Below are positions 3,653 through 51,908 of a stretch of DNA of 64,000 bases, one piece after another. The notes beneath the pieces are model-generated. The model ran no database searches, was not told the origin of the DNA, and saw only the letters and a program-made list of their open reading frames with translations. Within the stretch, counting starts at the first letter, position 1. The number at the start of each line of letters is the position of its first letter. Source of the DNA: Escherichia phage ECO07P2; sequence record OP172785. One strand, written 5' to 3'. A program made the position numbers and the translations under genes.

Positions 3653-4174
3653 TTATCCTTTCATTGAAGGTGTAACAGTTGTTAAATACTTAATCATAGC
3701 TTCAGCTTCTGATTTTGATAATGAAATTTCTCCATTGTTTTGACGAATAGAAATAAAATCCGGATGACGGTCACCACCAGCTTTTAAAACACACATATAA
3801 GTATCAGTTTCATCTTCAATATTTGAAATAATTGAAGCAGTTCCGCATGAATGCGGTTTTTGATAAATCAATACGGCTTTTCTTCCACCGTTTGACTGTT
3901 CATAAACTTTTAACACATCAAACAAATCACTTCTTTTATCAATAGCTAAGATGTTGTTTTCATCTTCAATGTTAAATCCTTCGGATACTTCATAAAGTGT
4001 CACCCATAAATCACCTATATCGATAGTAGCATTTTCCTTTCCATGACTTTCAAGAGTATGACAAATTTTCTTGATTTCGTCATAACTCATTTTAATAATA
4101 TCATCTCCTTGAATAAGGAAGATGTCATTTTTAAATTCAATACGAATTAAACCACTTTCACTCGAAATAAACAT
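3653..4174 (-). CDS. hypothetical protein, paralog of adjacent ORF 4182-4739
   Basis: 173 aa; shares GFNIE(D/S)E and C-terminal (A/E)xxK(T/Y)YL(D/T)(S/T)V(I/T)P(T/S)M with neighbour. Confidence 0.6.
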   Translation of the reverse strand: MFISSESGLIRIEFKNDIFLIQGDDIIKMSYDEIKKICHTLESHGKENATIDIGDLWVTLYEVSEGFNIEDENNILAIDKRSDLFDVLKVYEQSNGGRKAVLIYQKPHSCGTASIISNIEDETDTYMCVLKAGGDRHPDFISIRQNNGEISLSKSEAEAMIKYLTTVTPSMKG

Positions 4175-10827: not shown

Positions 10828-11157
10828 TCAATTAGAAAATAAATTTATCCAAGATTGTTCTTTAATTAAAAATGGCTCAGAATCATATGCCATTAAACTT
10901 TGGGTGATTAGTCCTTTAAAAGGCCCATCAATAAATTCCATGGTAAAATATGGAATTTTATTCATTAATCTTGCATTAGGAGCAGTGCACAAAACTCTGC
11001 ATCCTTTGAATACGCCTTTTTGTAATTTGTATTGCTTAGGATAAAATTCGCTCAAGACGTTGTTATTTGCCAAAATTTCAAAATGATTCACCAATTTATT
11101 TTTAATAGTTTTTGGCGAAAAATAAAGATATTCGAAAAGTTGCGTATCTGTCATCAT
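10828..11157 (-). CDS. hypothetical protein (about 109 aa)
   Basis: start moved to ATG at 11157/11154 in an ATGATGA overlap with upstream stop. Confidence 0.45.
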   Translation of the reverse strand: MMTDTQLFEYLYFSPKTIKNKLVNHFEILANNNVLSEFYPKQYKLQKGVFKGCRVLCTAPNARLMNKIPYFTMEFIDGPFKGLITQSLMAYDSEPFLIKEQSWINLFSN

Positions 11158-11691
11158 TGCATTCCGATTACGAAAAACTGTGGACGAGTAATACCACCAG
11201 TACAGCATTTACTATTGCAGCAGTGTTGCACAGTTTCAATATGAATATCGTAAATTTTATCCATATCAGGAGATTTAACAGGCTCATCGATTATATACAA
11301 AATTCGAGAAAGCGATAAACCTCTGAACTTGCTACCTCTATTACCAACAAAACTACGGACAGAATCAGTAAATAAGCGGAATCGAATATCATCATTAGAA
11401 TAACGCGAAAATTCTTTTTTAATGTGGCCCGCAGAAATTTTAGCGTAAGCTGAAGTATTAGAAAGAACAATAACTGTTCCACCATCATACAGCCAATTAG
11501 CAGCAAAGTTAGTCACAGCAGTTGATTTACCAGATTGACGTCCACCATCTAGTCGAAGTGTGCAATACTGCTTAAGTAAGTCTTCAAATGGTGGGATATA
11601 ATCGTTTTTACAAATTTCTTCTACTCTAGCATCAGAATGGTGTGTAAAAGCATTCATCAGGGATAGATAAGGACCAGTTAAAAATGTTCTC
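11154..11691 (-). CDS. small P-loop NTPase-like protein
   Basis: about 179 aa from ATG 11691; Walker A-like GGRQSGKST and hydrophobic-DE stretch ILYIIDEP. Confidence 0.5.
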
Positions 11692-11727
11692 ATTTTATTC
11701 TCTCTAAATTTGGGCCATTCCATGGCG

Positions 11728-11762
11728 CATGAATTGTCCATTTCTGTATTTACCCATTACCG
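11728..11762 (-). repeat. copy 1 of a 35-bp conserved intergenic element (second copy at 12374-12408)
   Basis: 33/35 identity between the two copies; both sit 40-90 nt upstream of minus-strand gene starts. Confidence 0.6.
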
Positions 11763-11846
11763 CACTTGGGCTCGACCTTATTACAGGTTGGCGGGAATCC
11801 CTCATAGAACCATGAGGTCCAGCTTGTTCCCATATTTCTTATTTGC

Positions 11847-12320
11847 TTATTTGAATGATTTGACGTACTGAATAGAGCCTTTGCTATTCACGAAAGCGAT
11901 TTTACCATTTTTATTATACATGGTAGCAGTACGCTGATAGCCATAAGTTTGCTTACCAGATTGATAACCAACTAATGCAAAATTATCTTCACCCATTTTA
12001 TTCTGTTTAGCACGAATGCGTTCATGACCATGCGCCATAAGAACCTTAGCATCACCAGTTGCAATGGATCTACGAGTTTTTTCATCTTCAACTGTATTAA
12101 CAAAGTCGTCAAATGAATCAAATTTAGCGTGAGATTTATTATACAGTTTTCCATCTACTGCATAATTGTATCCCTGTACATCCATCTCAACTTCTGTACC
12201 ATCATCCAATACAGCAGTGATTTTTTGACCTTTTTTAAATTTCAAAAGATCAGTAAAAGATTCAGCAATAATTTGAGAATTAATAGCTGCCTCAGTAATA
12301 AATTCTTGATATGTTTTCAT
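11847..12320 (-). CDS. capsid-targeting-sequence (CTS) protein, internal-protein-like
   Basis: 157 aa; N-terminus MKTYQEFITEAA is the T4 CTS shared by IPI, IPII, IPIII and Alt and cut by gp21 after Glu. Confidence 0.7.
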   Translation of the reverse strand: MKTYQEFITEAAINSQIIAESFTDLLKFKKGQKITAVLDDGTEVEMDVQGYNYAVDGKLYNKSHAKFDSFDDFVNTVEDEKTRRSIATGDAKVLMAHGHERIRAKQNKMGEDNFALVGYQSGKQTYGYQRTATMYNKNGKIAFVNSKGSIQYVKSFK

Positions 12321-12360
12321 GTTATCCTTTAAATGTAAATAGTTTTATTCTTTAAGTTTT

Positions 12361-12408
12361 GGACAATTCACACGCATGAATTGTCCGTTTCTATATTTAC
12401 CCATTACC
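12361..12408 (-). repeat. copy 2 of conserved intergenic element, with perfect 10-bp inverted repeat
   Basis: ggacaattca-cacgca-tgaattgtcc hairpin (12361-12386) overlapping the 35-bp core shared with 11728-11762. Confidence 0.6.
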
Positions 12409-12427
12409 AGGTTCGAAATCGGCTTTA

Positions 12428-13006
12428 TTAAGAATTACCACGGGCTGCATTAGCAACGGCGTAAGCGTACTGAACATTAGCGTCTTTAAACGTACCTTTA
12501 GAGGTATCTAGTTCTGCCTTAAAGCCGCCTTTAGTCATAACCTCGGCGAATTCTTTACGGAAAGCCATTGCATCAAGGCTTCTCCATGACGATTTGTGCT
12601 TGGCGAATTCAAGACCAGCGTAGTTGACAGCCTTAGCTAATTTATTATCAATAACCCATTTACCAGCTTTAGGCACAAATACCGGGCCTTTCTGTTTGGA
12701 GAATAGTTTTAAATTCCAGCGACGAAGGTCACCGTCAGCTTTAACAAAAGCTGCGTCCAAGTTACTAGCAACAACATCTTGAATATGGCCAAATTTAAGC
12801 CCATCAACTTCAATATTTAGATCAGTACGCCAGCGAAGTCCTTCCCAAGCGAAAGCTTTAAAGTCAGAAGCCTTTGTAGCTAAATACCGTTCAATAGGAG
12901 CTGTTTTAGGGTCAAAGCCGTTTCCTCGGTAAGTCCACTCATCTTTATTAATGCCTTTGGCCTTTTCCACAGAAGCTTCAGTGATAAATTCTTTATAGGT
13001 TTTCAT
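12428..13006 (-). CDS. CTS protein (IPIII-sized internal protein)
   Basis: 192 aa; N-terminus MKTYKEFITEAS; length close to T4 IPIII (194 aa) but identity not verified. Confidence 0.7.
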   Translation of the reverse strand: MKTYKEFITEASVEKAKGINKDEWTYRGNGFDPKTAPIERYLATKASDFKAFAWEGLRWRTDLNIEVDGLKFGHIQDVVASNLDAAFVKADGDLRRWNLKLFSKQKGPVFVPKAGKWVIDNKLAKAVNYAGLEFAKHKSSWRSLDAMAFRKEFAEVMTKGGFKAELDTSKGTFKDANVQYAYAVANAARGNS

Positions 13007-13021
13007 GTGTTTCCTTTATTT

Positions 13022-13336
13022 TTATTCTTTAGGGAAGTTTTTAGAATATGCATCATAAAGCTTATTTCCAATACGGCGGAAAACTCTAGCCGCAAAACGA
13101 TTTTCTGGGTTTTTAATCATGATTTGCATCATATAAGTACCCGCGTCAGAAAGAGCTTCTTCATAGTACCCGTTAATTTCTTTAAGAGTCCTACGTTTAC
13201 CACCAGGACCATCAACAGTGATTTTCCATTTACCTGTAGAAGTGCGACTTGGCGGCTCAACTTGTTCAATCCAGATATAACCGCCTTCTACACGTTGGTT
13301 GGCGGATTCTGCAATAAATTCTTTATATGTTTTCAT
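13022..13336 (-). CDS. CTS protein (IPII-sized internal protein)
   Basis: 104 aa; N-terminus MKTYKEFIAESA; basic small protein. Confidence 0.7.
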   Translation of the reverse strand: MKTYKEFIAESANQRVEGGYIWIEQVEPPSRTSTGKWKITVDGPGGKRRTLKEINGYYEEALSDAGTYMMQIMIKNPENRFAARVFRRIGNKLYDAYSKNFPKE

Positions 13337-13366
13337 TTTTGTTTCCTTGTTTATTTTGATAGAGTA

Positions 13367-13396
13367 ATTATACCATATTAATACTTAAGCGTAAAC
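13367..13396 (-). promoter_or_regulatory. T4-type early promoter
   Basis: gtaaac 13391-13396, attata 13367-13372 (TATAAT), spacer 18. Confidence 0.6.
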
Positions 13397-13452
13397 CGTT
13401 TAAGCTTCACCGCCAGAAATAATTCCGAAGTTGTTAAATTGATACGAGTCAT
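13378..13452 (-). pseudogene. denV: relic of denV (endonuclease V) reduced to 24 codons
   Basis: minus-strand ATG at 13452 behind GGAGG encodes MTRINLTTSELFLAVKLKRFTLKY then stop; first 11 residues match T4 endonuclease V MTRINLTLVSEL as recalled. Confidence 0.5.
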
Positions 13453-13479
13453 AATTTCCTCCAAGTAGTTGATGAATGT

Positions 13480-13509
13480 ATAGTATCAAAGTCCTTGGAG
13501 GAAGTAAAC
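13480..13509 (-). promoter_or_regulatory. T4-type early promoter
   Basis: gtaaac 13504-13509, atagta 13480-13485, spacer 18. Confidence 0.6.
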
Positions 13510-13510
13510 A

Positions 13511-13792
13511 CTATTTTTCTGAAGCGCCTGAAATATATTTTTCAAGACGTTGTTTCATTAGCGAGCCGTTCTTAGCGATTTCTTCTGGTTTATCGCACAT
13601 ACGCAACAAGGCTTCAAGCTTAACGATATCGCTGGTACGTTCAAATTTGCGAGTATCTATCTTACTAGCAAGTTCAGAAATACGTGCTAATAGACTTTCA
13701 GCTTCAACCAAAGCTGCACCTAGCTTAGTTGCAAAGGTGTCAGTAGCTTCGTTAAGAATAGATTCTGATAAAAATTCACTATATGTTTTCAT
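13511..13792 (-). CDS. CTS protein (internal-protein-like, 93 aa)
   Basis: ATG at 13792 overlaps lysozyme stop; N-terminus [11 protein letters not shown]; track start at 13807 is a TTG. Confidence 0.65.
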
Positions 13793-14277
13793 ATATACGC
13801 TTTCCAAGTTCCTGTTTTAAATGTTGAGATTACGCGTTTCGCGCGATTAGGTGTCTGACGATACCATTTAGATTGGGCTAGATTTACTGCCGCTTCATCC
13901 CAGCGTTTTTGTTGAAGCATACGAAGAGAATTAGTAAAACCAGCGACGCCTGCTACACCCATTTGGAAGACCATATTGACCAACGCACATCGACGAACTG
14001 CATCTAAAGAATCATATACCGGTTTAAGTTTAGCATTACCCAAGATTCCGCGAACGGCTTTATCAACGTCTTCATTAAATAGCTTTTCAGCCTCATCAAG
14101 GGTAATTGTACCGTTGCATTTACGTCCGATCATTCTGTCAAGTTCAGCTTTAGCTACGGCTAAAGACGGGTTCTTTGTTACTAAATGGCCTATGCCAATC
14201 GTCCAAAAGCCTTCAGTGTCTTTGTATAAAGTCAGTCTAAGACCTTCATCTATACGCAACATTTCAAATATATTCAT
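13789..14277 (-). CDS. e: endolysin (T4 lysozyme e, muramidase)
   Basis: 162 aa; [28 protein letters not shown] matches T4 lysozyme with scattered substitutions. Confidence 0.95.
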
Positions 14278-14290
14278 AATACCTCCTAAG

Positions 14291-14311
14291 TATTTATAGA
14301 AGGTATTTATA
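14291..14311 (-). promoter_or_regulatory. two overlapping late promoters (TATAAATA on minus strand) upstream of e
   Basis: plus-strand tatttata at 14291-14298 and 14304-14311, 14-34 nt upstream of e start codon. Confidence 0.55.
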
Positions 14312-18718: not shown

Positions 18719-18794
18719 TGGTCGAGGCAGTAGGGATCGAACCTACGACCTAGGACTTAGAAGGTCCTTGCTCTTCCTTCTGAGCTATGCCCCG
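18719..18794 (-). tRNA. tRNA-Arg (anticodon UCU), CCA encoded
   Basis: hand-folded cloverleaf on minus strand; anticodon loop CUUCUAA; GGTTCGATCC T-arm. Confidence 0.8.
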
Positions 18795-18798
18795 TAAT

Positions 18799-18874
18799 TG
18801 GGGTGACCGATGGGAGTCGAACCCATGACTACGAGAATCACAATCTCGAGTTCTACCAACTGAACTACGGCCAC
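18799..18874 (-). tRNA. tRNA-His (anticodon GUG) with extra 5-prime G
   Basis: anticodon arm CGAGA-UUGUGAU-UCUCG; G-1 pairs with C73; T-arm GGGTTCGACTCCC. Confidence 0.7.
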
Positions 18875-18988
18875 ATTAATATCTACTCCAACAATCAAGA
18901 TGTCTTCACACGAAATTAAGAGAAGAGTGATCAGTTCAACCCCGATAATCGCGTCAAGTAGATATTAATGTGACAGTTGTCACAAATT

Positions 18989-19063
18989 TGGCGGACGTGA
19001 TAGGATTCGAACCTATAACCAATCGCTTAACAGGCGATCGCTCTGCCATTGAGCTACACATCC
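18989..19063 (-). tRNA. tRNA-Asn (anticodon GUU)
   Basis: anticodon arm ATCGC-CUGUUAA-GCGAT; T-arm ATAGG-TTCGAAT-CCTAT. Confidence 0.7.
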
Positions 19064-19067
19064 AAAT

Positions 19068-19154
19068 TGGTGGGGAGTGATGGAGTCGAACCACCCGAGT
19101 CGCAATGACAATGGATTTACAGTCCACACCGCTACCTCTACGGGATAACTCCCC
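19068..19154 (-). tRNA. tRNA-Tyr (anticodon GUA), long variable arm
   Basis: acceptor GGGGAGT/ACTCCCC; anticodon loop CUGUAAA; class II length 87 nt. Confidence 0.65.
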
Positions 19155-19167
19155 TTAATTCTTAATT

Positions 19168-19242
19168 TGGTGGCCCTGGGTGGAATTGAACCACCATCTG
19201 GCGATTATGAGTCGCTTGCTTGAACCTTCCAGCTACAGGGCC
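19168..19242 (-). tRNA. tRNA with CAU anticodon (T4 tRNA-Ile-like; Met by anticodon alone)
   Basis: anticodon loop CUCAUAA; adjacent to tRNA-Thr as the T4 Thr-Ile pair. Confidence 0.65.
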
Positions 19243-19243
19243 T

Positions 19244-19319
19244 TGGTGCTGATTGACGGAATCGAACCGCCGACCTTCTCATTACAAGTGAGTTGCTCTA
19301 CCTACTGAGCTAAATCAGC
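19244..19319 (-). tRNA. tRNA-Thr (anticodon UGU)
   Basis: acceptor GCTGATT/AATCAGC; anticodon loop CUUGUAA; T-arm GGCGG-TTCGATT-CCGTC. Confidence 0.75.
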
Positions 19320-19324
19320 AAAAC

Positions 19325-19414
19325 TGGCGGAGGCGATAGGATTTGAACCTATGAGTCGCCGGAGCGACTGCCGGTTTTCAAGACCGGTGCATTAAACCAC
19401 TCTGCCACGCCTCC
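19325..19414 (-). tRNA. tRNA-Ser (anticodon UGA), long variable arm
   Basis: anticodon arm CCGGT-CUUGAAA-ACCGG; 90 nt class II. Confidence 0.75.
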
Positions 19415-19416
19415 AG

Positions 19417-19490
19417 TCTCCATACAAGGATTTGAACCTTGGACCTCCTGATCCCAAATCAGGCGCTCTACCAAACTGAGCTACACGGAG
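19417..19490 (-). tRNA. tRNA-Pro (anticodon UGG), CCA not encoded
   Basis: anticodon arm CCTGA-UUUGGGA-TCAGG; only 2 nt from tRNA-Ser 5-prime end (dimeric precursor as in T4). Confidence 0.75.
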
Positions 19491-19500
19491 TAAATTAAAT

Positions 19501-19574
<74 letters not shown>

Positions 19575-19579
19575 AAATT

Positions 19580-19666
19580 TGGTGCGAGAAGTGGGACTCG
19601 AACCCACAAGGAAATCATTCCGCAGCATTTTAAGTGCTGTGCCTTTACCAATTTGACCATTCTCGC
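19580..19666 (-). tRNA. tRNA-Leu (anticodon UAA), long variable arm
   Basis: anticodon arm CAGCA-CUUAAAA-TGCTG; 87 nt. Confidence 0.75.
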
Positions 19667-19667
19667 G

Positions 19668-19740
19668 CTGGGAATAAAGGACTCGAACCTTTGCATCCTG
19701 GAATCAAAATCCAGTGCCTTACCAACTTGGCTAATTCCCA
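19668..19740 (-). tRNA. tRNA-Gln (anticodon UUG), CCA not encoded
   Basis: acceptor TGGGAAT/ATTCCCA; anticodon arm CTGGA-UUUUGAU-TCCAG; 1 nt from tRNA-Leu (Gln-Leu dimeric precursor). Confidence 0.75.
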
Positions 19741-20786: not shown

Positions 20787-21095
20787 CTATTTTATTCCGC
20801 GTGATGCAATTGTGTTCTGCCGTTTAACACCAGTTTGTTTAAAGTCATGATTGTCGATTTGATCGGTACGAGCAACACCGAATGATGATTTAATCTTAGC
20901 TTTAGATCCTTTAGTTATAGAAATAAACATCTCGGAAGCCCCTTTCTTAAAGTCCGAGGCGATTACTTCAACGCCGTTCTTAGCAAGTGACCTCAGAATT
21001 GCCTCCGCGTACTCATCATCAAGACTCGCCTGAGTATTAATAACGAATGTCTTTGGTGCAGCCGCTTCATTGATAAATTCTTGATATGTTTTCAT
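20787..21095 (-). CDS. CTS protein (internal-protein-like, about 102 aa)
   Basis: MKTYQEFINEAAAPK from ATG at 21095; an upstream in-frame ATG at 21107 would add 4 residues. Confidence 0.65.
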   Translation of the reverse strand: MKTYQEFINEAAAPKTFVINTQASLDDEYAEAILRSLAKNGVEVIASDFKKGASEMFISITKGSKAKIKSSFGVARTDQIDNHDFKQTGVKRQNTIASRGIK

Positions 21096-21162: not shown

Positions 21163-21435
21163 TTATTTTAAATAAATTGCATATTTTTTATAACCAGCCG
21201 TCTCGTGACGCAGACCTTTTTCATTAGCAAAGCGTTCAATATTATTAATTTGATTCTGATCAAGTTCTGAAATATCAAATACAAAAAAGTTTCGTTTATT
21301 TCCTAACGTTACATGATTCGTCAAATCAATGTTATAAAGATGATTTATATTATCAATCATAGTCTTAACAGATTTGCTAATTTTTACTTCTTCATTAAGA
21401 GCAGATTCAACGATAAACTCTTTGAAAGTTTTCAT
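21163..21435 (-). CDS. CTS protein at the ipI position (internal protein I-like)
   Basis: 90 aa; N-terminus MKTFKEFIVESA; located just upstream of 57B as T4 ipI. Confidence 0.7.
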   Translation of the reverse strand: MKTFKEFIVESALNEEVKISKSVKTMIDNINHLYNIDLTNHVTLGNKRNFFVFDISELDQNQINNIERFANEKGLRHETAGYKKYAIYLK

Positions 21436-50005: not shown

Positions 50006-50430
50006 TGCTTCTGATCCCTGAAACTCATGAATTAGTTCTCGAGAATGTCGAAGCACTTATTCCTGAAGCACAGGGTCGCTTTGACGAATTGTCTTCTGCT
50101 TTAAATAAAGACGATATAAATACAATTGTCGAGAATATGCTTGATGATGAAACTGATTTAGCGGTTGCATTAGCTTCTATTAATGAAAATATGCCGTTAA
50201 ATGAATTCATCGTTAAACATGTTTCTGCCCGTGGTGAAATTACTCGCACTAAAGATCGCAAAACCCGCGAACGAAATGCATTTCAAACCACTGGGCTGTC
50301 TAAAGCAAAACGTAGACAAATTGCTCGTAAAGCTACCAAAACGAAGATTGCCAATCCAGCAGGTCAATCTCGTGCTCAGCGTAAGCGTAAAAAAGCTCTT
50401 AAACGCCGTAAAGCATTAGGATTAAGCTAA
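50005..50430 (+). CDS. 68: prohead core protein gp68
   Basis: 141 aa as in T4; basic C-terminus. Confidence 0.85.
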
Positions 50431-51068
50431 TGAATGAACCCCAATTACTAATTGAAACTTGGGGTCAACCTGGCGAAATTATTGATGGTGTGCCAATGCT
50501 TGAATCCCACGATGGAAAAGACCTAGGTTTAAAACCGGGTTTATACATCGAAGGAATATTCATGCAAGCGGAAGTCGTCAATAGAAATAAACGTCTTTAT
50601 CCAAAACGCATATTAGAAAAAGCGGTAAAAGACTATATCAATGAGCAAGTTTTAACTAAACAAGCTCTCGGAGAATTAAATCATCCTCCACGCGCTAATG
50701 TTGACCCGATGCAAGCCGCTATCATTATAGAAGATATGTGGTGGAAAGGAAATGACGTATACGGACGAGCTCGTGTTATTGAAGGTGACCATGGTCCTGG
50801 AGATAAATTAGCAGCTAATATTCGTGCCGGATGGATTCCAGGAGTTTCTTCTCGTGGATTAGGTTCATTGACTGACACAAATAAAGGTTATCGTATCGTA
50901 AACGAAGGATTCAAATTAACTGTAGGTGTTGATGCAGTATGGGGTCCAAGTGCTCCAGATGCATGGGTAACTCCTAAGGAAATTACCGAATCACAGACGG
51001 CGGAAGCCGATACAAGTGCCGATGACGCCTATATGGCTCTCGCAGAGGCCATGAAAAAAGCGTTATAA
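50430..51068 (+). CDS. 21: prohead core scaffold protease gp21
   Basis: 212 aa as in T4. Confidence 0.95.
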   Translation: MNEPQLLIETWGQPGEIIDGVPMLESHDGKDLGLKPGLYIEGIFMQAEVVNRNKRLYPKRILEKAVKDYINEQVLTKQALGELNHPPRANVDPMQAAIIIEDMWWKGNDVYGRARVIEGDHGPGDKLAANIRAGWIPGVSSRGLGSLTDTNKGYRIVNEGFKLTVGVDAVWGPSAPDAWVTPKEITESQTAEADTSADDAYMALAEAMKKAL

Positions 51069-51098: not shown

Positions 51099-51908
51099 AT
51101 GCTTAAAGAACAACTGATTGCCGAAGCGCAGAAAATTGATGCTTCCGTTGCTCTTGATAGTATTTTCGAATCAGTTAATATTTCTCCGGAAGCAAAAGAA
51201 ACTTTCGGCACTGTATTCGAAGCTACCGTCAAGCAGCACGCCGTTAAATTAGCTGAATCTCATATCGCTAAAATTGCTGAAAAAGCAGAAGAAGAAGTAG
51301 AAAAAAATAAAGAAGAAGCCGAAGAAAAAGCTGAGAAGAAAATCGCTGAGCAAGCTTCTAAATTCATCGACCATCTTGCGAAAGAATGGCTCGCTGAAAA
51401 TAAATTAGCAGTTGATAAAGGCATCAAAGCCGAACTGTTTGAATCCATGCTTGGTGGATTAAAAGAGCTCTTTGTTGAACACAACGTTGTTGTTCCAGAA
51501 GAATCAGTTGATGTTGTAGCTGAAATGGAAGAAGAGCTGCAAGAACATAAAGAAGAATCAGCTCGTCTGTTCGAAGAACTCAATAAGCGTGACGCATATA
51601 TCAATTATGTGCAGCGTGAAGTGGCATTGAGCGAAAGTACTAAAGATCTGACTGAGTCTCAAAAAGAAAAAGTCTCTGCTCTGGTCGAAGGTATGGATTA
51701 TTCAGATGAATTCTCAAGTAAATTGAGTGCCATCGTAGAAATGGTGAAGAAGTCTAATAAAGATGAAAGCACTATTACTGAGGGTATAAATACTCCTGAT
51801 ACTGAAGCAGCCGGACTGAATTTCGTCACTGAAGCTGTAGAAGATAAAGCTGCACCTGGTGCAGAAGATATTGTAAGTGTATATGCGAAAGTCGCATCTC
51901 GTTTCTAA
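51099..51908 (+). CDS. 22: prohead core scaffold protein gp22
   Basis: 269 aa, Glu/Lys/Ala-rich coiled coil. Confidence 0.9.
   Translation: MLKEQLIAEAQKIDASVALDSIFESVNISPEAKETFGTVFEATVKQHAVKLAESHIAKIAEKAEEEVEKNKEEAEEKAEKKIAEQASKFIDHLAKEWLAENKLAVDKGIKAELFESMLGGLKELFVEHNVVVPEESVDVVAEMEEELQEHKEESARLFEELNKRDAYINYVQREVALSESTKDLTESQKEKVSALVEGMDYSDEFSSKLSAIVEMVKKSNKDESTITEGINTPDTEAAGLNFVTEAVEDKAAPGAEDIVSVYAKVASRF

Follow-up and report, generated by a model that had tools for sequence, protein, structure and literature searches.

Four internal protein genes with a capsid-targeting sequence beside the lysozyme gene of Escherichia phage ECO07P2: a mosaic array of probable injected anti-restriction factors

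The stretch of DNA analyzed here, 64,000 nucleotides (nt) of Escherichia phage ECO07P2 (sequence record OP172785; hereafter the window), carries four consecutive open reading frames (ORFs) for internal proteins (Ips) on the minus strand, bounded by the lysozyme gene e (13789-14277, minus) and by vs.8 (11154-11741, minus). Reading away from e, which encodes 162 amino acids (aa) and lies directly upstream of the first of them, these are an internal head protein of the RB69 ORF127 type (Ip5-like; 13511-13792, 93 aa), the Ip10 precursor (13022-13336, 104 aa, N-terminus MKTYKEFIAE), an orthologue of IpIII (12428-13006, 192 aa, N-terminus MKTYKEFITE) and the Ip4 (IpIV) precursor (11847-12320, 157 aa, N-terminus MKTYQEFITE). 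All four start with MKTY(Q/K/S)EF(I/L)xE, the capsid-targeting sequence (CTS) of T4 internal proteins, and all four lie in one of two variable Ip loci (e to vs.8/denV; the other extends from 57B to trna.4). On the evidence assembled below, we consider it very likely that this e-proximal Ip locus of a Tequatrovirus encodes four proteins that are packaged in the head and injected into the host, likely as blockers of type IV restriction.

The shared N-terminus was first noticed in an earlier reading of this DNA (the original prediction), which placed four minus-strand ORFs with a T4-type CTS start at exactly these coordinates. All 5 matches from a six-frame scan of the window for MKTY.EF are on the minus strand; the amino-acid composition of the window predicts 0.0006 matches, and 200 shuffled windows together yielded 1. 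Four of the matches are the ORFs above, and the fifth (20787-21095), like a variant with MKTFKEF (21163-21435), belongs to the second Ip locus. The occurrence of this tag in the four ORFs is far beyond chance. Behind the tag the proteins are mutually unrelated, as had also been proposed: when the first 10 residues are left out, BLASTP finds no two bodies similar at E<0.1, the hhalign probability is ≤1% for every pair, and the alignment of the Ip4 and Ip10 profiles is restricted to columns 1-13.

The lysozyme gene has 82% nucleotide identity to T4 e, and an identical gene on a public contig is assigned to Pfam Phage_lysozyme. The ATG of the 93-aa ORF overlaps the stop codon of e (ATGA), by which this gene is translationally coupled to e. 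We compared synteny with T4, G4498, Shfl2, W143, PP01 and RB69; the order vs.8, Ip genes, e, nudE is common to the window, T4, G4498, Shfl2, W143 and PP01, and a public assembly contig has the identical order e (162 aa), 93, 104, 192 and 157 aa, vs.8. The window matches 893 phage records, mostly T4-like phages of Escherichia and Shigella, and the region belongs to Tequatrovirus. The 192- and 104-aa proteins, together with 102- and 90-aa proteins of a second locus described below, are exact sequences of Escherichia phage ECO07P2.

The 157-aa ORF is Ip4. It scores 319.4 bits against Pfam DUF7412 (cutoff 27) with residues 1-157 covered, matches phrog_3155 ("internal virion protein"), is 100% identical to the "Ip4" of Shfl2 and the "IpIV" of PP01, and has the same exact sequence as IpIV of T2, being present on 459 contigs; the family extends to 470 phage records. 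In T2, K3, RB14/32/51, Shfl2 and PP01, Ip4/IpIV likewise lies between ipIII (or ip10) and vs.8, and nothing sets the 157-aa ORF apart from the identical proteins of T2, Shfl2 and PP01. The sole BFVD match in a structural search was "Ip4 [phage K3]". The predicted mature protein, cut at MKTYQEFITE/A, has 147 aa, 16.5 kDa and an isoelectric point (pI) of 9.1. This family is narrow, with 14 homologues in an index of 5.8 billion sequences and 7 matches among 1.8 billion representatives in a full hidden Markov model (HMM) search. Its distant members begin MNF(E/K)(Q/D)FLNES. Across phages of Salmonella, Klebsiella and Serratia, Ip4 keeps 61-82% identity; 49 columns are invariant, and a strongly conserved core comprises MDVxGYNY..GKLYNKxHAKF, LMAHGHxRI and NKxGEDNFAL.GYQSGK. 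An NCBIfam match to a curli synthesis inhibitor (E 0.0022; 17 bits, where the cutoff is 300) was rejected as noise because it falls far under the cutoff and because the HMM search gave only 7 matches, the full-length ones starting CTS-like, as expected of Ip4 relatives.

The 192-aa ORF is 91% identical over its full length to T4 IPIII (Ip3; E 1e-132), matches phrog_5341 at E 2.8e-116, has the precomputed Pfam family Phage_T4_IpIII, and its exact sequence is annotated as "internal protein III" in phage ECO07P2. It shares the CTS architecture of T4 IPIII and its position downstream of e, and is an orthologue that differs by 17 substitutions and a one-residue deletion in the window allele. The mature protein is predicted to arise by cleavage at MKTYKEFITE/A and to have 182 aa and a pI of 9.6. 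The 104-aa ORF is 98% identical to the PP01 "Ip10 internal head protein" and 71% to Ip10 of SP18, shares a 90% cluster with Ip10 of phage Pol (CAA84455), also clusters with RB69 ORF124c, and matches phrog_3966, which PHROGs labels "unknown function"; the Ip10 family is found in 189 phage records. Its predicted mature form (cut MKTYKEFIAE/S) has 94 aa and a pI of 9.6, and the next Ip gene follows directly downstream here and in PP01, W143 and RB69. The structure model of Ip10 is unreliable (predicted local distance difference test score, pLDDT, 58). Curli-related matches to Ip10 (Pfam CsgH, E 0.08; PDB 2n59, E 0.29) lie far under the cutoffs and were rejected as noise.

The 93-aa ORF belongs to phrog_3499 ("internal head protein"), a family in 496 phage records; its body is 100% identical to RB69 ORF127, to G4498 gp128 and to an ORF of W143, and it has 47.6% identity (E 9e-24) to bas37_0261, deposited as Ip5 of T6. 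The protein contains two candidate sites for the prohead protease gp21, LSE/S at residue 10 and LNE/A at residue 15, and the likeness to Ip5 of T6 and RB69 ORF127 extends to this arrangement of a CTS followed by a second L-x-E site. Ip5 of T6 sits at the ipI locus, whereas the 93-aa subfamily lies directly after e. The mature protein is near neutral, with a pI of about 6.3. In RB69 ORF127 itself (L006 1387-1668), the first motif is degraded to MKTYMNFYQN and lacks Glu10, and the second site, LNE/A, is retained. To judge from these motifs, the RB69 ORF127 family may be processed at residue 15 rather than residue 10. Ip10 and the RB69 ORF127/Ip5-like gene are part of an RB69/W143-type module.

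T4 has only ipIII and ipII at the same place. The original prediction had reasoned from this that at least two of the four genes must be additional; three of the four prove to be non-T4 cargo, yet each comes from an already named family. Ip4 lies where T4 and W143 have ipII. A search of the window for T4 IPI and IPII found neither: once the CTS is trimmed off, no window ORF matches T4 IPII at better than E 0.45, and tblastn matches are confined to the CTS or driven by it. Of the four ORFs, the 192-aa one is the IpIII orthologue, and none is IPII.

Downstream of 57B, the ipI locus holds two further intact CTS genes. The first is Ip9-like (21163-21435, minus; 90 aa; MKTFKEFIVE/S; phrog_7673; its cluster bears the name Ip9 in phage IME08), and the other encodes 102 aa (20787-21095, minus; MKTYQEFINE/A; phrog_2667). 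Neither is a homologue of T4 IPI; the phage carries six Ips, without IPI and IPII.

The N-termini of the four proteins retain the residues that matter for targeting and processing in T4. The first ten residues of T4 IPIII suffice to package even foreign proteins; within them, residues 4 and 7 serve targeting and residues 8 and 10 processing, with gp21 cutting after the Glu of L/I-x-E (PMC9026906). Tyr4, Phe7, Ile/Leu8 and Glu10, followed by Ala or Ser, are present in four of four ORFs. The window also encodes the prohead protease gp21 (50430-51068, plus; Pfam Peptidase_S77, E 1.5e-111) and the scaffolding core protein gp22 (51099-51908, plus; Pfam T4_CASP, E 3.8e-90), and likewise gp67, the portal protein gp20, and gp23. 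The core component with which T4 internal proteins co-purify is gp22. Entry into the host along with the DNA has been demonstrated only for T4 IPs and for CTS fusions. We infer, with good support from these determinants, that the four proteins are packaged, cleaved and ejected.

The same ten codons are also a unit at the nucleotide level. Among the four genes the first 30 coding nt share 82% identity, compared with 38% in the 25 nt upstream and 24-34% in the following 90 nt, and this conservation includes synonymous positions. Upstream of Ip10 lies a T4 early-type promoter (GTTTAC, spacer, TGGTATAAT; 13367-13396, minus; a 10/12 match with an extended -10), the best promoter match in the region, which aligns with GTTTAC..TGTGAT elements upstream of T4 ipII and ipIII and of both ipI-locus genes. 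Promoter-like sites of the sigma-70 type and terminators are not enriched in the region (11 promoter-like sites, 10.6 expected), and we use only the 10/12 site upstream of Ip10 because of its alignment with the T4 early-promoter elements. The sole late promoters nearby are two copies of TATAAATA upstream of e (14291-14298 and 14304-14311, minus), 13 bp apart and conserved with T4 in the same layout; the motif occurs 23 times in the window, with 9.9 expected. Because these are the only late promoters nearby, any late transcription of the Ip genes would reach them by reading through e.

Ip4 is bracketed by a 58-nt direct repeat. The upstream copy (12373-12430) is 79% identical to the downstream copy (11726-11783), which lies between Ip4 and vs.8 and forms no stable hairpin. 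An 11-bp stem-loop (arms 12360-12370 and 12377-12387; RNA fold -18.2 kcal/mol, z -3.9) begins 13 nt outside the upstream copy and overlaps its Ip4-proximal end. In W143 the 58-nt repeats bracket IpII instead, and in T4 the core of the repeat is found immediately before the annotated 5' end of vs.8 or within it. The repeat probably supplies homology for the exchange of IpII and Ip4 alleles. The start of vs.8 is itself ambiguous: the longest ORF, of 195 aa (MDNSCAMEW...), begins within the 58-nt repeat, a start at the internal Met seen when ipII-vs.8 of W143 is aligned (MRTFLTG...) would shorten the protein to about 179 aa, and annotations run to 504-540 nt in G4498, Shfl2 and W143 and to 660 nt in T4.

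This anatomy agrees with the published picture of the Ip loci, in which more than 30 Ip variants are flanked by early-promoter/stem-loop elements that are analogous to PeSLs and that confine shuffling to two small loci (PMC2839356, quoting Repoila 1994, Comeau 2007). The locus resembles the PeSL cassettes of RB49 and phi1, in which short promoter plus stem-loop elements between non-essential genes offer homology for cassette shuffling (Arbiol et al. 2010). It differs from them in that the Ip-locus elements, T4 early promoters and AT-rich stems, are analogues and not homologues (PMC2839356), and in that the CTS-coding start and the 58-nt repeat add extra homology here.

Between the 93-aa gene and Ip10 lies the scar of a deletion. 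The original prediction had placed a denV relic beside e, and what is left of that gene is indeed its promoter, ATG and about 7-8 codons (13452-13432). Alignments to T4, W143 and G4498 resolve the relic as a chimeric 24-codon ORF (MTRINLTTSELFLAVKLKRFTLKY; 13378-13452, minus), in which the start of denV runs, in another frame, into the 3' end of an 86-aa CTS gene that has been lost. The remnant of this fifth CTS gene, of the RB69 ORF125/W143 86-aa type, comprises its last 9 codons (..FGIISGGEA) and the stop (13400-13431, minus). Upstream, the denV early promoter with its PeSL-like stem-loop is intact and conserved with T4, W143 and G4498 (13455-13510, minus; an inverted repeat with an RNA fold of -17.8 kcal/mol, z -3.7), and together with the intact ribosome-binding site it now drives the chimeric ORF.

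In W143 the order is e, 93-aa Ip, denV, 86-aa Ip, Ip10, IpIII, IpII, vs.8, and the left half of the RB69 locus is ordered likewise. Relative to W143 about 620 bp are missing, the alignment stopping at L003 3402 and resuming at 4024. Compared directly with the parental sequences, the junction reads ATCAATTTAACA followed immediately by ACTTCGG, with TTTAACA at 13438-13432. Because TTTAACA is common to denV codons 5-8 and to the 86-aa CTS gene near its 3' end, we read the scar as a single microhomology-mediated deletion (7 nt) that took out nearly all of denV and nearly all of the fifth Ip gene. No denV body was found elsewhere in the 64-kb window. Since denV is deleted, the phage is predicted to be sensitive to ultraviolet light, like classical denV mutants.

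Phage RPN226 has the same junction. There (L007 1904-2500) the scar is followed directly by a 198-aa IpIII variant with a 7-residue duplication (GNGFDNPGNGFD), with no Ip10 and no Ip4, an arrangement that illustrates rapid reshuffling of the locus. Names of protein clusters at this locus are to be treated with care: the 90%-identity cluster of the 86-aa Ip (RB69 ORF125) also contains full-length denV proteins (137-143 aa), and the cluster of the 93-aa protein includes 86-aa members, mixtures that look like an artefact of adjacent or overlapping gene calls. The window further contains 11 tRNA genes at 18719-19740 (minus), for Arg, His, Asn, Tyr, Met, Thr, Ser, Pro, Gly, Leu and Gln; the same locus of T4 holds 8 and is not known to include His, Asn, Tyr and Met.

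The view of injected Ips as anti-restriction factors is said to have originated with Repoila in 1994 and Bair in 2007. T4 Ip1, Ip2 and Ip3 have since been shown to block one GmrSD-family type IV restriction enzyme apiece, a different one in each case, with no cross-protection (PMC12373910). A screen of ip4-10 against 15 GmrSD groups gave no reproducible hit (Silas et al. 2025, PMC12373910), and a CTS-bearing protein of phage Bas37 (Bas37_0260) inhibits McrBC (bioRxiv 10.1101/2025.11.20.689424). The IpIII orthologue very probably inhibits the ECOR17-type enzyme, as T4 Ip3 does, and our best guess for Ip4, Ip10 and the Ip5-like protein is a comparable role against further modification-dependent nucleases; to this extent we infer an anti-restriction function for the four proteins. 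The GmrSD inhibitor IPI* of T4 and the McrBC inhibitor Bas37_0260 share the delivery logic of CTS, packaging and injection, but have no similarity to any window ORF beyond the CTS; they are the best models for how the uncharacterised Ips may work. A homologue of Bas37_0260 was sought in the window, and the only matches were driven by the CTS.

Database searches of the Ips gave no significant matches in Pfam (DUF7412 apart), NCBIfam, PADLOC or PDB sequences, and structure prediction, proposed along with the original prediction as a route to function, yielded no functional lead. For virion proteomics on these Ip families, nothing relevant was found in the literature. One element of the original prediction does not stand as stated. 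It regarded the proteins as candidate new injected effectors, whereas each family is already named or annotated (PHROGs 3155, 5341, 3966 and 3499, with Pfam DUF7412; Ip4 in phages K3 and T2, Ip10 in Pol, SP18 and PP01, and the Ip5 family in T6), and the exact sequences of the Ips occur on dozens to hundreds of deposited contigs. The anti-defence idea follows the thinking of the field and had already been published and partly tested (Silas et al. 2025).

In the mechanism that we propose, the first 10 residues of each precursor would dock the Ip onto the scaffolding core during prohead assembly, gp21 would cut after the Glu of (I/L)-x-E, and the mature protein would stay in the head with the DNA, to be ejected into the cell along with it and so to act ahead of any phage gene expression. 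IpIII, by orthology, would block a two-gene GmrSD-type type IV restriction enzyme of the ECOR17 kind, and Ip4, Ip10 and the Ip5-like protein would most likely each bind and block a different variant of modification-dependent (type IV) nuclease. The locus is a cassette array, with unrelated bodies behind a conserved 30-nt CTS-coding start and with early-promoter/stem-loop elements and short repeats in between. These shared sequences may let the T4 recombination system swap, add and delete cassettes; in this phage, Ip4 has replaced IpII, and one deletion has removed denV together with the fifth Ip gene.

Ips might also be mainly structural, filling the head with basic protein, neutralising DNA charge or aiding prohead assembly, and their diversity might then reflect neutral drift of dispensable cargo. 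The basic pI of mature Ip4, Ip10 and IpIII (9.1-9.6) fits such a role, as do the roughly 300 copies of each IP per T4 head, the binding of IPs to DNA at low salt and the accumulation of polyheads by IPIII-minus and triple mutants (PMC9026906), the contacts of internal-protein lysines with DNA phosphates (PMC3012670), and the lack of a GmrSD phenotype for ip4-10. However, all three T4 IPs have specific restriction-enzyme targets, the ORF127-type protein is not basic, and the families are conserved as full-length ORFs (Ip4 at 61-82%, with its 49 invariant columns), which is more than charge alone requires. We regard a mainly structural role as improbable; structural and anti-defence roles are compatible with each other. 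Very improbable, in our judgment, is the idea that in some of the genes the shared N-terminus is a cassette for recombination or translation initiation and not a working targeting signal, so that some products would be ordinary early cytoplasmic proteins. The conservation of the CTS-coding 30 nt at synonymous positions would suit a cassette of this kind, and so would the early promoters directly upstream of Ip10 and, in T4, of ipII and ipIII, and the degraded first motif of RB69 ORF127 (MKTYMNFYQN). Nevertheless, all four window ORFs keep each experimentally important residue, and late transcripts would be available from the promoters ahead of e.

The choice of target is a separate matter. The Ips could be injected and yet act on something other than type IV restriction, either another defence system or host takeover, as the packaged ADP-ribosyltransferase Alt exemplifies. 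Alt shows that packaged cargo can serve other roles (PMC9026906), the negative result of ip4-10 on 15 GmrSD groups points the same way, and the His/Gly-rich core of Ip4 (MAHGHxRI...NKxGEDNFAL.GYQSGK) could be a catalytic or ligand-binding site. We hold this to be unlikely, and keep to the reading of the four proteins as packaged, injected and likely type IV restriction blockers. A related, more specific proposal is that Ip4, Ip10 and the ORF127/Ip5-like protein include at least one injected protein that inhibits a non-GmrSD defence, whether another class of modification-dependent nuclease or a non-nuclease system. It arises because ip4-10 failed on the 15 GmrSD groups and because a CTS protein that inhibits McrBC has been reported, and we offer it as a tentative possibility that we do not expect to prove correct.

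The locus is an ordinary example of the known polymorphic Ip locus, and its genes, the tag and the anti-defence hypothesis are already in the literature or in annotations. What the analysis adds is the exact identity of each protein, the finding that Ip4 stands in for IpII, the resolved denV/fifth-Ip scar, the 58-nt repeats and the pair of additional Ip genes at the ipI locus. The deletion scar, together with the repeats around the Ip4/IpII slot, makes the region a tidy example of the remodelling of a cassette locus. Ip4, Ip10 and the Ip5-like protein, found in 189 to 496 phage genomes each, would be delivered in advance of gene expression and are good candidates for new restriction inhibitors. 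If at least one of them did act on a non-GmrSD target, the six-Ip repertoire would amount to a wider pre-loaded set of anti-defence proteins than a model in which all Ips target GmrSD variants would allow, and the set of Ips carried by a T4-like therapeutic phage probably shapes its host range.

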